Positions 13,654 to 63,407 of a DNA stretch of 64,000 nucleotides are shown here, one piece after another. The DNA comes from a virus. Position numbers and translations under genes: made by a program. The notes beneath the pieces are model-generated. The model was not told where the DNA came from. It worked only from the letters and a program-made list of their open reading frames with translations, and made no database searches. The stretch's first letter is position 1. The number at the start of each line of letters is the position of its first letter. The DNA is taken from positions 30,024 through 94,023 of IMG/VR virus record IMGVR_UViG_3300032163_000005; one strand, given 5' to 3'.

Positions 13654-13943
13654 CGCTCCTCCATCAATACATTCTCTTCAGAGACCAATTTCGCAATGAA
13701 ATTCGTTGCCTCAATGAGATCGGTGACTGGGAGATTAGCCCACTGCGTCCACGATTGTCTGCCGTAGCGCGCGCAAAACGCTTTCTGTTTCCTACGTGTA
13801 TTCAAAAGCGCAACGGGATCGATTGCGACTCGCAAATGCCACGACGCATCACTCCACGACTCACACCACGCACCAAAAACAGGCGATGAAAGAAGATCGC
13901 GCTTAGTTACTCGGCCGGCATTGAGATCGTTGAAGTGATGCAA
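13650..13943 (-). CDS. tail assembly chaperone, -1 frameshift extension (gpGT-like)
   Basis: In the -1 frame relative to 13907..14428, no good start of its own, abuts the tape measure gene. Confidence 0.75.
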   Translation of the reverse strand: MHHFNDLNAGRVTKRDLLSSPVFGAWCESWSDASWHLRVAIDPVALLNTRRKQKAFCARYGRQSWTQWANLPVTDLIEATNFIAKLVSEENVLMEER

Positions 13944-26383: not shown

Positions 26384-26450
26384 GTGACGGTCCTCCGCGT
26401 GAACGAGAGAGGGATATCACCCGACGCGAGGATCGGGCTAGTGATGTCTA

Positions 26451-26487
26451 GCCGAGAGATGAAGCCCTCTCACTAGCTTTGATCTAC
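26451..26487 (-). CRISPR. solitary degenerate copy of the CRISPR repeat
   Basis: 26454..26479 GAGAGATGAAGCCCTCTCACTAGCTT is identical to the array repeat over 26 nt, followed by TGATCTAC versus GATCCAC; same orientation as the array. Confidence 0.9.
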
Positions 26488-59382: not shown

Positions 59383-59862
59383 GTTGAGAGATGAAGCTCT
59401 CTCACTAGCTTGATCCACCGGTGTTCCTGTCGAGGGGACCAACTACTTCCACTACTCGTTGAGAGATGAAGCCCTCTCACTAGCTTGATCCACGGATCAC
59501 CCACTCGGGATCGTCCGCGTCGAGCGCAAGTTGAGAGATGAAGCCCTCTCACTAGCTTGATCCACGAAACCCAGTGCGAGGCGAACGTGTGGCGCAGATC
59601 GTGGTTGAGAGATGAAGCCCTCTCACTAGCTTGATCCACCTTCTCGGGCTCGAGCCCCATCGCTTCGGCCTCTTCGCGTTGTTGAGAGATGAAGCCCTCT
59701 CACTAGCTTGATCCACAGATGGATGCTCGCCGCGTTGGTACACGCAATTGCTTGTTGAGAGATGAAGCCCTCTCACTAGCTTGATCCACCCGATTCGCGG
59801 AGTGTCCATCTCTCACCCTCTTGAACGTTGAGAGATGAAGCCCTCTCACTAGCTTGATCCAC
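59383..59862 (-). CRISPR. CRISPR array, 7 x 36-nt repeats GTGGATCAAGCTAGTGAGAGGGCTTCATCTCTCAAC, 6 spacers of 36-41 nt
   Basis: Repeats start (plus coordinates) at 59383, 59458, 59530, 59604, 59681, 59754, 59827. TGAGAG/CTCTCA stem. The single variant repeat at 59383 marks the trailer, supporting minus orientation. Confidence 0.98.
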
Positions 59863-59881
59863 CAGTCCTGCAAATCATTCA

Positions 59882-61375
59882 TCATTCCGCAGCATTCAAC
59901 TCCGGTTCGCGAGAGGTGGCAACCATCCGAAGATGATCCCCCGTTCCGATTCCATCAGCATTCTTTTTCTCTTTTCGTTTTGATACTTTGCGCGTGCGAG
60001 CACGAGGGGGGTTTCCATCACCAATCCACCGCTCGCTTTGATAGCGGAGAACCCGTGCGGCATTTTCATCCTGATGATGCTCGGCCCCGCACTCACATTT
60101 CCAGCGAAGCGCTGGACCAACCTTTTCTGCACGAATCAACCCGCACGATGAACAAGTCATTGTAGTGAATGCACTTGGAAGCCAATCAACACGAGCTGCC
60201 CCAAACCGTTGCAGGATGACGGTTTGGAGAATGTGTATGGCCGCACTCGAGCGCCATCGTTCAAGTGATGCTGTGTCGCCTTCTCCGACCCAAGCTTGCA
60301 TGGGCATGTCTTCAAGTGCGACGTATCGATATTTTCGCGCAAGTGCATCTGCGAATCGTTGGTAGGCATCAAGTCGGCGTCGAATAGCTCGATCTCGGAC
60401 ACCTGCTTCGATGTCTTCGAGATGGCGATCACGTTCCCGCCACCACAGTGCACCTAGATCTTGAGTCGTGAGCGCGATCCGTCGCATGCGCTCTTTGTCC
60501 TTCCAACGAAGCGCATGCTGCGCACCGGGAAGCTGTGCTTCCGATACATGTCGTTTGGCTTCGTCAAAATTGACATCTCGTATGCTCCGGATCGAATCGG
60601 AATATTGGAACGCCCGGATCGTATCGATGTGGAGAGACCCGACATCAACTACACCGTTCTCTTCTCCGTCGTAGGTCGCCACGAGCATGCCGAGCTCACC
60701 ATTTCTTCGCCAACCGACGTCTACACCGACAATGCCCAACCCAATGTCCTTTTTCCTATCAGGCTCAAATTCGATGGTGACCAACGCTTCCCAACGAAAT
60801 CGATGTCCCGAGCGCGTTCGTTGAACAGCAACTTGTTTGACAACAGCGCCATCCGGGAAATCCCGATGAAGTTTGATGGGCCATGTGATCGTTTGGCCAG
60901 CCGCCAGCGCGCCAACATGGATGGTGAGCTCGGCGTGTCGTCTGGCATTGAGGCTTGTGAGAGAAATACGTTTGCTCGTCGTCCAATCCAACGCTGGAAA
61001 TTGAGCTCGCGAATGAATCTCTCCGCCAATGGATCCTGTGCCATCCCAATGCTGCATCTTGATTGGATCAAGACGACTCGCTTTGCTCGCTGAGAGCATT
61101 GCAGCCTCAATAAGCCAATAAGTACCCGCGTCGAGTAGATGACCCCTACGTCGTCGTGCCCCCCGGATCCTCTCATTCTGAGTTTGATGAGTGAACGCCA
61201 TGACATGAGATGCATCATCCTTGCTCTCAAGGAGTGTGCGAAAATCTCGTTTGGCCGCGTTGTAAATCCGTCGCAACTCTTCACGATAGAGCCACGCTTG
61301 CCCGAGCAATTGAAGGGCCCGGTCCATTTCTTTGGGAGCCCGGCATCCGAATTTGTAGACCCTATTTTCAATCAT
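59882..61375 (-). CDS. cas12: compact type V CRISPR effector, Cas12m (V-U1)-like, 497 aa
   Basis: RuvC-I VGVDVGWR, RuvC-II VALED, Zn finger CSSC...CEC, RuvC-III QDENAA; WDGTG and LHR.FP motifs recalled from Cas12m; AAGGA RBS before ATG 61375; array 19 nt downstream. Confidence 0.85.
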   Translation of the reverse strand: MIENRVYKFGCRAPKEMDRALQLLGQAWLYREELRRIYNAAKRDFRTLLESKDDASHVMAFTHQTQNERIRGARRRRGHLLDAGTYWLIEAAMLSASKASRLDPIKMQHWDGTGSIGGEIHSRAQFPALDWTTSKRISLTSLNARRHAELTIHVGALAAGQTITWPIKLHRDFPDGAVVKQVAVQRTRSGHRFRWEALVTIEFEPDRKKDIGLGIVGVDVGWRRNGELGMLVATYDGEENGVVDVGSLHIDTIRAFQYSDSIRSIRDVNFDEAKRHVSEAQLPGAQHALRWKDKERMRRIALTTQDLGALWWRERDRHLEDIEAGVRDRAIRRRLDAYQRFADALARKYRYVALEDMPMQAWVGEGDTASLERWRSSAAIHILQTVILQRFGAARVDWLPSAFTTMTCSSCGLIRAEKVGPALRWKCECGAEHHQDENAARVLRYQSERWIGDGNPPRARTRKVSKRKEKKNADGIGTGDHLRMVATSREPELNAAE

Positions 61376-61433
61376 CACATTCCTTCTTGCCGCATCATTT
61401 ATTTCGTCGTACCAAGCTTGATCTTGATCGCTC

Positions 61434-61622
61434 TCACTCTTCCGCCTCCTGCATCTTCGCTTCGAAGTCCCTGAGCTCCGGTGCTGGCTTGTGATTCGTT
61501 TTGAAGATCTCGCAGATCCACTCGAACGCATCTTGATAGGTGCCATCACCCGCACGAACAATGTCTGCGACTCGCGCCCATGCTTTGGCGTTACCACTGA
61601 GAATGCGCTGTTCAAAATTCAT
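61434..61622 (-). CDS. small hypothetical protein upstream of cas12
   Basis: 62 aa, ATG start. Confidence 0.55.
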   Translation of the reverse strand: MNFEQRILSGNAKAWARVADIVRAGDGTYQDAFEWICEIFKTNHKPAPELRDFEAKMQEAEE

Positions 61623-61761
61623 GGTGTGTCATTCGCTAGGGGGAAAAGGGACTTCACGAATTGGAGATCCGCGAGATATTCGACGTCGCGTTTGACGTCC
61701 TCTCGCGTTGTCGCGAGCACACGTGTCCACGGTGTGGCTACAAGAACGTGGGAGGCAAGAA

Positions 61762-61968
61762 ATGAAGTTCGTTGTCACGATCGAAACTGAAAACGCCGCG
61801 TACGCACTCGCACCACGCGATCTTGTCCCGCTGCTTCGCGAGCTTGCAAAGAACCTCGGCGAGCAGTCGGACTACGAAGCGGCCAGCATTCACGGATACG
61901 AGGGGCGGATTCGGGACGCTCAGGGCAACACGATCGGTAAGTGGTCCTGGGAAACGGGAAAGCGCTAA
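61762..61968 (+). CDS. small hypothetical protein
   Basis: GGAGG RBS, MKFVVTIETENAAY...IRD.QGN.IG.W. Confidence 0.6.
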   Translation: MKFVVTIETENAAYALAPRDLVPLLRELAKNLGEQSDYEAASIHGYEGRIRDAQGNTIGKWSWETGKR

Positions 61969-62168
61969 GTCAGCAGCAAGAAACTCAGGACGCCTCCGCA
62001 GCGACGATGGCGGCAGCCTCCCAGGGACCGTGGCGATCCGTGTAGTACATGTCGTAACCCCGCATCCGCTCCTTACTGGTCGGCGGACGACCGGCGATCT
62101 CCATAAATTTGTCGAGGAACTCCTGATGATGTCGCTGCATTCGCTGATCGAACGTTTCTCCTCGCCCT

Positions 62169-62561
62169 TTACTTCGTATTTTTCGCATCACGATTCCTTT
62201 CCACGATGAGGCGATCACGCCACCGGGCAAGCGGCTCGCCAGTGATCTCGCTCGTGCTCACGTTATCGACGAACGCGAGGGCTTCGGGGCGTGACTCGAA
62301 GTAGTAGCGCTGTCGAGTCAAACGGTCCCGAACACGCCAAGGGCGGTCGGCCGCTCGCGTCGCGCTCGGATCACGTGACGTACGACCATGCGTTCGGAAT
62401 GTTGTCTTCGAACGTGCGCTTTGGAGCGCAATAGAACGTGCCGCGTGAACTTCTGAATCTGTCATCTTTGCCATGACCATCACCTCTCGCTGCCTCTCGT
62501 CTTCGGCTTCTCGCCGCCCGAGAGGGCTTCGTGGCGCGGGGGCAACCCGCTTCGTTCTCAT
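62169..62561 (-). CDS. early hypothetical protein (start may be downstream at about 62480)
   Basis: Follows the promoter at 62577..62604. Confidence 0.5.
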   Translation of the reverse strand: MRTKRVAPAPRSPLGRREAEDERQREVMVMAKMTDSEVHAARSIALQSARSKTTFRTHGRTSRDPSATRAADRPWRVRDRLTRQRYYFESRPEALAFVDNVSTSEITGEPLARWRDRLIVERNRDAKNTK

Positions 62562-62576
62562 CTCTCCCACACCACT

Positions 62577-62604
62577 ATGATAGCTCACCCTAGGTTTCTG
62601 TCAA
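62577..62604 (-). promoter_or_regulatory. sigma70-like early promoter
   Basis: TTGACA-16nt-TATCAT, then GTGGGAGAGATG. Confidence 0.7.
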
Positions 62605-63379: not shown

Positions 63380-63407
63380 ATTATGGCCATGGGAGAGTTT
63401 CTGTCAA
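63380..63407 (-). promoter_or_regulatory. sigma70-like early promoter
   Basis: TTGACA-16nt-CATAAT; shares CCTTGACAGAAAC and GTGGGAGAGATGA with the 62577 promoter. Confidence 0.7.

Follow-up and report, generated by a model that had tools for sequence, protein, structure and literature searches.

The closest described relatives of the locus analyzed here are the type V-M systems, whose Cas12m proteins (MmCas12m2, 8HHL/8HHM/8HIO; GoCas12m, 8PM4; Cas12m, 23vw; UnCas12m4a, 23vu) were the best matches by sequence, profile and fold. In these systems a single effector is followed by an array, the protein carries a TNB zinc finger and, in clades 3 and 4, a D-E-D set of RuvC residues (the family also includes NED, HDD, NDD and HEK types; PMC10442227), and the guide consists of a crRNA only, with a 5' handle of stem and pseudoknot ending in (G/A)AC. 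The same arrangement, zinc finger and D-E-D residues were found here, together with a guide predicted to follow the same plan, but the effector is phage-encoded and only 497 aa long, as compared with 577-614 aa in the named Cas12m proteins. Known Cas12m proteins, including four D-E-D variants, bind dsDNA without cutting it (Bigelyte et al., PMC11013384), and their mature guides are of about 17 nt (preprint 10.64898/2026.03.26.714355).

A phage-encoded member of the family has been described in myxophage MV-1 (MvCas12m; bioRxiv 10.64898/2026.09.14.751636) and was compared here by description. It shares with the present locus the adjacent array, the D-E-D residues, the lack of cas1, cas2, cas4 and tracrRNA, and the absence of confident protospacers; MvCas12m is, however, a protein of 610 aa with eight spacers from a myxobacterial virus, while the effector described here is 113 residues shorter and belongs to an unrelated sediment phage. 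Cas12j/CasPhi and Cas12l/CasLambda are likewise phage-borne single effectors with a short array, no adaptation module and a presumed use against competitors, although they are nucleases of 700-800 aa from other Cas12 lineages, and aligned only weakly with the effector (VIA-align, Z 11-12). Cas12f (V-F) and TnpB are of similar size and have the same WED-REC-RuvC-TNB core (Z 18-21), but Cas12f needs a tracrRNA and acts as a dimer, whereas the present locus has no anti-repeat, and TnpB relies on a single long omega-RNA and moves together with TnpA, whereas the present locus has an array and no TnpA. Finally, Racr (PMC10651486) and crlRNA/CreR (bioRxiv 10.1101/2024.12.27.630466) provide precedents for a lone repeat-like unit placed outside an array, in an intergenic position ahead of a gene, as was also observed in this phage; unlike in those cases, the cognate Cas protein is encoded in the same phage, and no partially complementary promoter target was found.

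Organization of the locus in the phage genome

The window analyzed (64,000 nt) corresponds to bases 30024-94023 in the 94,023-bp record of an uncultured sediment phage, which has 127-bp direct terminal repeats and is rated as 100% complete. Matches to the PHROGs families of TerL, major head protein, portal and tail sheath confirmed the phage location that had been proposed from the letters of the window. No match to Cas1, Cas2, Cas4, Y1 TnpA or tyrosine integrase families was found across the whole 94,023-bp genome, so that the lack of cas1, cas2, cas4 and TnpA noticed in the window by an earlier, sequence-only reading holds for the complete genome (as regards Y1 TnpA families). No tRNA genes were found, and an Rfam search gave no match. 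The features discussed below are listed in Table 1.

Table 1. Position of the effector gene, the CRISPR array and associated features (window coordinates)
Feature	Position	Strand	Remarks
cas12m-like effector gene, 497 aa (P0001)	59885..61375	-	ORF call; stop codon 59882-59884
Gap between stop codon and first repeat, 19 nt	59863..59881	-	
CRISPR array, seven 36-nt repeats and six 36-41-nt spacers	59383..59862	-	repeat search
Repeat unit, in gene sense	59383..59862	-	GTGGATCAAGCTAGTGAGAGGGCTTCATCTCTCAAC
Integrase-derived spacer	59566..59603	-	sense strand encodes HDLRHTFASHW, box II region of tyrosine integrases
62-aa ORF directly upstream of cas12m	61434..61622	-	no family match
Nearest strong sigma-70-like promoter match upstream of cas12m	62577..62604	-	TTGACA-16-TATCAT, 11/12; consensus match only
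Solitary repeat unit	26451..26487	-	intergenic; hairpin and pseudoknot intact
Gene downstream of solitary repeat, 228 aa	25697-26383	-	located upstream of major head gene

The ATG start of the effector gene, which is preceded by an AAGGA Shine-Dalgarno sequence, was preferred over a longer ORF beginning with TTG because relatives share the starting residues M(A)IENRV; the longer version would overlap the separate 62-aa gene. This small ORF is not conserved beside the cas12m genes of relatives, and is possibly co-transcribed with cas12m in the phage. No conservation was detected among the genes neighbouring cas12m in related loci. A 16-nt duplicate of the cas12m leader, pointed out in the earlier reading, has approximately the length expected by chance in 94 kb, according to our estimate.

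Six of the seven array repeats are identical, the copy most distant from the gene (59383-59418) having one mismatch, and repeats of the array type gave no match in shuffled sequence. The 497-aa RuvC/zinc-finger ORF, the six-spacer array and the distance of 19 nt between stop codon and first repeat were all as first described. The array has the same orientation as the effector gene, and the gap is too short to contain a leader or a promoter of the array's own. Gaps of 19-22 nt were also present in three relatives (L013, L014 and L015), and the array was located directly 3' of cas12m both in these loci and in 7 of 10 distant IMG/VR viral loci.

In its folded form, the repeat combines a hairpin with a 6-bp stem and a pseudoknot. 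Both helices, including the stem of the hairpin noticed earlier, are backed by covariation among relatives: 96.5% of cells were paired (vs. 25-53% when the helices were slid), changes on both sides were present in 8 of 11 pairs, and the observed score was reached by none of 500 shuffles. The plan of the repeat matches that of the GoCas12m and ApCas12m crRNAs (PMC11013384 supplement), and agrees as well with the published Un Cas12m crRNA. A tracrRNA-like anti-repeat was searched for outside the array, and no complementary stretch of at least 12 nt was found within several kb of the locus. These observations are consistent with the absence of a tracrRNA proposed at the outset, and with a predicted crRNA-only guide whose 5' handle, with its stem and pseudoknot, would derive from the repeat.

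Effector family and the compact clade

Searches at the level of sequence, profile and structure assigned the effector to the same family. With phmmer against the PDB, the best matches were Cas12m 23vw (E 1.6e-21) and UnCas12m4a (E 4.5e-13); with a profile built from the clade of the effector, 23vw was retrieved at E 1.3e-46, while Cas12f and TnpB were found at 1e-6 or weaker, the best match other than Cas12m being an AI-designed nuclease (E 7e-10). The top four Foldseek matches of the effector model were Cas12m2 and GoCas12m (E 6e-20 to 7.5e-18), and VIA-align gave Z values of 22-24.2 with 433-448 residues aligned for Cas12m, as compared with Z 21 and only 338 aligned residues for TnpB, and Z 18 for Cas12f. 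The best PADLOC model was Cas12u1 (E 3.7e-39, 133 bits), followed 13 bits below by one Cas12f model (120 bits). Pfam recovered a Cas12f1-like TNB domain only, and the NCBIfam models guided_TnpB and IS607_TnpB scored 35.3 and 30.8 bits, vs. cut-offs of 100 and 350, respectively. The motifs WDGTG, LHR..P and GWR and the W...R.RH. helix, which the sequence-only reading had named as typical of Cas12m, were aligned with 23vw in the HMMER output. The effector is a relative of Cas12m (type V-M / V-U1) by sequence, profile and fold, as originally proposed, with an identity of only about 18% to the Mm and Go proteins.

Within the family, the effector falls in a compact clade that is well separated and comprises 46 sequences of about 500 aa. 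This clade is placed on a long stem branch (support 1.0); its members scored at least 328 bits with the clade profile, the next sequence scoring 242 bits. The RuvC residues (D219, E355 and D436) and the four zinc-finger cysteines (C408, C411, C427 and C429) are invariant in the 29 aligned clade members, and 177 of the 196 aligned family sequences are D-E-D. The strictness with which D-E-D is conserved points to a role in catalysis, and is a feature that a model based on binding only leaves unexplained.

At 497 aa, the effector departs from the typical Cas12m, which measures about 580-610 aa and contains an extended REC1 ('Roof') insertion. Residues 1-162 of the effector correspond to residues 1-256 of 23vw, its REC/WED part at the N-terminus having about 94 residues fewer, as in the compact clade generally; the later part is also about 30 residues shorter than in solved Cas12m, and only three REC helices (residues 17-100) are present in the model. 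At the C-terminus, the members of the clade have an additional conserved tail of about 45 residues, and in the effector the last residues (453-497) are basic and disordered, ending in a conserved AAE. The short length represents a difference of form and not of core fold, since about 445 residues align with Cas12m; nevertheless, the effector may differ in how it reads the PAM and in how strongly it binds, because the 94 or so missing residues belong to the REC/WED region, by which the PAM is contacted in solved Cas12m structures.

As judged from the sequences, the compact clade is distinct from the Cas12m proteins studied so far, a distinction that the earlier reading did not contain. Compared with every characterised Cas12m, the effector is shorter by around 100 residues, and the clade would rank among the smallest array-guided effectors needing no tracrRNA. 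A small effector guided by crRNA only is relevant to repression, base-editing and epigenome tools limited by delivery, and the clade is a natural experiment on the amount of REC1 that Cas12m needs.

Proposed mode of action: binding or cutting

It is probable, in our view, that the locus constitutes a functional type V-M-like CRISPR-Cas module, devoid of adaptation genes and carried by a tailed phage. In such a module, cas12m and the array beginning 19 nt past its stop codon would be expressed as one transcript; the protein would bind the 3' two-thirds of each repeat, folded as hairpin and pseudoknot, and would trim the precursor, without a tracrRNA, to crRNAs in which a repeat-derived handle at the 5' end is joined to a guide at the 3' end; and the resulting ribonucleoprotein would locate PAM-flanked dsDNA matching the guide. 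By analogy with the characterised members of the family, the effector would most likely block transcription or replication through tight binding, and not through cutting.

The same system could instead act as a genuine nuclease, in which case members of the compact D-E-D clade would cut target DNA in the manner of Cas12f or TnpB, and competitors would be destroyed instead of silenced. This seems rather unlikely to us, even though no aligned member of the clade departs from the D-E-D triad or the zinc finger, TnpB and Cas12f are near in fold (Z 18-21), and Omura et al. suggested that D-E-D clades might hydrolyse DNA (PMC10442227): the four D-E-D variants analyzed by Bigelyte et al. (PMC11013384) showed no dsDNA cutting, conversion of HDD to DED did not restore cutting by Cas12m2 (PMC10442227), and the closest solved relatives are named as DNA-binding proteins.

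Spacers, distribution and solitary repeats

The use of the system as a weapon against mobile elements, suggested by the sequence-only reading, is weakly favoured by the origin of one of the six spacers in the box II region of an integrase gene, while on the opposite side no full-length protospacer was found for any of the six, five of them being without a target. The first 22 nt of the integrase spacer were exact in 15 IMG/VR contigs, the matches failing after 22-24 nt; with 6-14 mismatches over 38 nt in each of them, these contigs were rejected as the true protospacer. Seeds of 20 nt from spacers 1, 2, 3 and 6 (gene order) had no match in IMG/VR, and the seed of spacer 5 matched one contig (L032), a match attributed to chance given that 12 of the 16 remaining nt mismatched. 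When the whole array was compared by BLAST with phage and plasmid collections, weak integrase matches only were obtained, and the spacers of the phage and its relatives matched neither the phage nor any related locus retrieved. The presence of an integrase-derived guide in a phage without an integrase points to conflict between mobile elements, and the targets are probably other mobile elements residing in the same host.

Neither the repeat family nor the compact protein clade was present in the genomes of 185,579 species, and the borrowing of host Cas1-Cas2 for spacer acquisition, also put forward earlier, is unsupported. A pattern search in IMG/VR retrieved no further copy of the repeat pattern of this phage. 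Ten further Cas12m loci from IMG/VR were found in this analysis, and Cas12m, previously reported from phages in one preprint, appears to be widespread in uncultured phages. Contigs from three sediment runs were also compared with the locus, the cover of the array being fragmentary only: in a second sediment study, fragments covering about 60% of the cas12m gene showed no differences, nor did the only array piece, a short repeat-spacer-repeat with the same spacer. Among the sequencing runs listed as containing the phage, none was of RNA.

Besides the array, the phage genome contains one intact solitary repeat unit and one decayed remnant, none of them ahead of its own cas12m, and no further significant copies were detected in the 94-kb genome with a covariance model of the repeat. 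The intact unit lies 33 kb from the array and is separated by 67 nt (26384-26450) from the ATG of the downstream 228-aa gene; it has a 1-nt insertion near its 5' end, terminates in GGC and not in AAC, and is followed by an inverted copy of its own 5' half (plus strand, approximately 26428-26443). Genes adjoining solitary repeats gave nothing by Pfam or PHROGs. In related loci, the last upstream repeat adjoins the Shine-Dalgarno sequence and ATG of cas12m (L013 and L016), a lone repeat lies 11 nt ahead of the ATG of a 584-aa ORF (L011), and eight degenerate repeats precede cas12m, with further copies scattered through the same virus record, as far as 58 kb away (L005). These lone repeats suggest that phages may employ parts of CRISPR systems for regulation. 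It appears doubtful, though conceivable, that the array silences integrase-bearing or other competitors while the lone repeats load Cas12m with phage sequence, and similarly doubtful that the effect of the latter would be to determine when late genes and cas12m are expressed, or to restrict their expression, or to exclude close relatives without the insert; if true, a CRISPR protein would be regulating phage genes.

Control of the phage's own genes might even be the main task of Cas12m, which would bind repeats embedded in phage transcripts, array-based defence being secondary. We regard this as unlikely, and hold the same opinion of the suggested route, by which Cas12m would process, repress or stabilise those mRNAs, or load adjacent phage sequence as a guide. 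Both would accommodate a structurally intact solitary repeat in sense orientation within an intergenic gap, as well as the repeats next to cas12m (L013 and L016), the lone unit of L011 and the dispersed copies of L005. The scarcity of such units in this phage and their absence ahead of its own cas12m argue against them, however, as do the lack of any trans target in the phage genome for the sequence following the solitary repeat, the unremarkable stability of the local fold (z -0.86), and the six diverse ordinary spacers and identical repeats, which resemble a defence-type array.

An anti-CRISPR decoy is very improbable. In this reading all of the repeats, those of the array as well as the solitary unit, would imitate a type V-M system of the host and titrate or mis-load its Cas12m in a Racr-like manner, the phage gene being a captured copy. 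Inhibition of host Cas proteins, including those of type V-A, by solitary repeat units of viruses is known, but such units usually occur without cas genes (PMC10651486), whereas this phage encodes its own conserved cognate protein; moreover, none of the 185,579 species' genomes contains the repeat. As for a TnpB/IS200-IS605-type transposon gene, the grouping named in the sequence-only reading as the contrary outcome, or a decaying relic beside chance repeats, the Cas12f1-like TNB domain and the weak NCBIfam matches to TnpB speak in favour, but both are extremely improbable in view of scores far under the cut-offs (35 vs. 100 bits), no Y1_Tnp in the complete genome, a regular seven-repeat array in place of a single omega-RNA, no chance matches in shuffles, an intact ORF with invariant catalytic residues, and cas12m pieces from the second study that were identical to the gene.

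Gene and array layout in a complete phage genome

The 94,023-bp virus record, of which the window forms the right-hand 64 kb, carries 127-bp direct terminal repeats and was rated complete. It encodes a large terminase, a major head protein, a portal and a sheath-like protein, and its TerL shares only 22-24% identity with that of any cultured phage. The phage was found in sediment metagenomes from at least two studies. Since the effector ORF, the array and the phage genes were all seen, and the Cas1, Cas2, Cas4, Y1 transposase and tyrosine integrase families were not found in the whole genome, the observation made in the sequence-only reading (an ORF and an array in a phage setting, with adaptation and TnpA genes absent) was right in every detail. 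Judged from its sequence, this phage locus is a genuine type V-M-like CRISPR-Cas system that lacks adaptation genes and appears intact.

The effector ORF (P0001) starts at an ATG preceded by an AAGGA Shine-Dalgarno (SD) motif; a 577-aa reading from a TTG start was rejected, as it overlaps an independent gene and the relatives all start M(A)IENRV. The array begins 19 nt past the effector stop codon. A gap of 19-22 nt is also kept between stop and first repeat in three related loci (L013, L014 and L015), which argues that cas12m transcripts would carry the array as their 3' part. Six of the seven repeats are identical, suggesting that the array may be young or homogenised. The remaining copy differs at one position and sits at the gene-distal end, where a degenerate repeat would be expected if the leader end were next to the gene. 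Matches to the array repeat occurred in none of 100 shuffled sequences. The array of locus L015, with its diverged repeats, looks less like an acquiring array than like an old, long-fixed guide set without acquisition. In the second sediment study, the recovered contig pieces of cas12m showed no differences from the window; those found upstream represent strain variation in accessory genes adjoining the cas12m module.

Coordinates of the features (window positions unless prefixed with a locus)
Feature	Position	Strand	Remarks
cas12m-like ORF P0001	61375 to 59885	minus	497 aa; stop at 59882-59884
C-terminal tail of P0001	59885-60019		residues 453-497
CRISPR array	59383-59862		seven 36-nt repeats, six spacers of 36-41 nt
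Integrase spacer	59566-59603		encodes HDLRHTFASHW
Independent gene	61434-61622		62 aa
Terminator-like hairpin	61654-61674
Strain-variable region	61409-62394		one contig upstream of cas12m diverges past 61409; 190 other bases replace 61722-62394
Sigma-70-like promoter matches	63380-63407; 62577-62604	minus	near-consensus (11/12); near right genome end, upstream of cas12m block
Solitary repeat	26451-26487	minus	67 nt (26384-26450) to ATG of a 228-aa head-region gene
Inverted copy of the repeat's 5' half	26428-26443	plus	14/16 nt; 7 nt downstream of solitary repeat in gene sense
Decayed repeat remnant	L033:13886-13914	minus	G000 bases 13886-13914 (whole phage record), outside window; about 150 nt upstream of recA-like gene start
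L015 array	L015:11503-12590		15-17 diverged repeats, irregular spacing of 38-123 nt, many compensatory stem changes
Tandem units, distant viral Cas12m-like locus	L010:11484-11702		3 identical 73-nt units (repeat + same spacer)
Upstream repeats	L013:291-384; L016:902-1014		2 or 3 degenerate, short-spaced repeats
Upstream repeat blocks	L014:310-1064; L005:8851-9218		degenerate, short-spaced repeats ahead of cas12m

A compact clade within the Cas12m family

The Cas12m-like identity first proposed from motifs was borne out by sequence, profile, predicted fold and PADLOC. The only Pfam domain recognised in P0001 was the TNB zinc ribbon, and NCBIfam TnpB models scored far under their cut-offs. Among solved structures, the 577-aa Cas12m 23vw was the best match by sequence (E 1.6e-21, residues 163-445), with UnCas12m4a next; once 29 clade members were combined into a profile, 23vw was matched at E 1.3e-46 over residues 52-446, against 1e-6 or weaker for Cas12f and TnpB. 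For the AlphaFold model (pLDDT 84.8), the closest structures were likewise Cas12m2 and GoCas12m, both by Foldseek (E 6e-20 to 7.5e-18) and by VIA-align (Z 22-24.2, 433-448 residues aligned), with TnpB at Z 21 (338 aligned) and Cas12f at Z 18. The best PADLOC model was Cas12u1, the old name of V-M, with one Cas12f model only 13 bits behind.

About 45 metagenomic proteins, mostly of ~490-540 aa, are 45-61% identical to P0001. Members of this clade scored at least 328 bits in an exhaustive profile search and the next sequence 242 bits; beyond lies a continuum of 977 representatives (E <1e-30), mostly of 550-650 aa. In a FastTree phylogeny of 196 sequences, the compact clade (46 sequences) was monophyletic (support 1.0; stem length 0.85 substitutions per site). 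On these comparisons, P0001 is placed in a separate compact clade inside the Cas12m family. Compared with 23vw, it lacks ~94 residues from the N-terminal REC/WED part and another ~30 further on, yet has an extra C-terminal tail beyond the aligned part, which contains a basic stretch and then a terminal AAE nearly invariant across the clade, and is predicted to be disordered.

D219, E355, D436 and the four zinc-finger cysteines are invariant in the clade alignment, and most sequences of the wider family sample (177 of 196) are D-E-D too. It is possible that the effector cuts DNA instead of binding it; most likely, it would perform crRNA-guided, PAM-dependent DNA binding aimed at other mobile elements.

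The locus is not categorically new; Cas12m has already been characterised, and adaptation-less CRISPR systems are already known from phages. A 610-aa phage Cas12m was reported in a September 2026 preprint (bioRxiv 10.64898/2026.09.14.751636). What the sequences indicate as new here is the separate compact clade, whose proteins are ~100 residues shorter, have a short REC1 and end in a conserved tail; the phage also carries the lone-repeat feature.

Repeat RNA and guides

In gene sense, the repeat consists of 7 variable bases, AAGC(C/U), 3 bases, a 5-6-bp stem with a loop starting GGCUU, and (G/A)AC. When pairs for the hairpin and the AAGCY-loop pseudoknot were counted over 37 aligned repeat units, drawn from four related loci as well as this phage, 96.5% of cells paired (25-53% with slid partners), 8 of 11 pairs showed changes on both sides and none of 500 shuffles reached the observed score. 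These figures are inflated, since the alignment contains many related rows and was itself the source of the structure; such inflation leaves the numerous G-C to A-U and G-C to C-G swaps unaccounted for. In all Cas12 systems, the handle lies 5' of the guide. The Go, Ap and Un Cas12m crRNAs used by Bigelyte et al. have the same plan as the phage repeat (supplement, PMC11013384), and their GoCas12m structure contains a triplex and a pseudoknot (PMC11013384). Given this shared plan, and since no anti-repeat of at least 12 nt was found near the locus, the handle in the phage system is predicted to be 5' of the guide. An Rfam search of the repeat RNA gave no matches.

None of the spacers matched the phage's own genome. 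By BLAST, one spacer gave only weak matches, all to phage and plasmid tyrosine integrase genes; its first 22 nt were exact in 15 IMG/VR contigs, all of which diverge beyond (6-14 mismatches), and TTC or TTT preceded 10 of these 15 matches. Characterised Cas12m uses ~17-nt guides and tolerates no mismatch in the first 12-14 nt (preprint 10.64898/2026.03.26.714355). If the clade behaves likewise and its PAM is T-rich, this guide could reach many integrase genes. The other five spacers had no credible match. The suggestion that spacers are acquired through borrowed host Cas1-Cas2 found no support: neither the repeat nor the protein clade was found in genomes of 185,579 species, and the only array piece recovered from the second study has the same spacer.

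Lone repeats outside arrays

A covariance model run over the 94-kb genome detected eight units in all: the seven array repeats and a solitary repeat between two same-strand genes. The solitary repeat retains both hairpin and pseudoknot, and its last three bases are GGC in place of AAC. The nearby inverted copy could pair with and mask its pseudoknot-forming segment; the predicted fold of this region is not unusually stable.

In loci L013 and L016, the last of the upstream repeats directly precedes cas12m's own SD and ATG, which suggests autoregulation of cas12m; no repeat unit lies ahead of this phage's own cas12m. A 584-aa ORF in locus L011 has a lone repeat 11 nt ahead of its ATG, and the L011 and L005 virus records contain repeat copies as far as 58 kb away from the array. 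Lone units are otherwise represented by Racr decoys (PMC10651486) and regulatory crRNA-like RNAs (bioRxiv 10.1101/2024.12.27.630466), neither described for a phage with its own Cas12m. Judging by its sequence context, the lone-repeat feature may have a regulatory use. The decayed remnant retains 15 nt identical to the array's variant terminal repeat (AGTGAGAGAGCTTCA), flanked by ATCAA and CAAC, and has lost the 3' stem strand.
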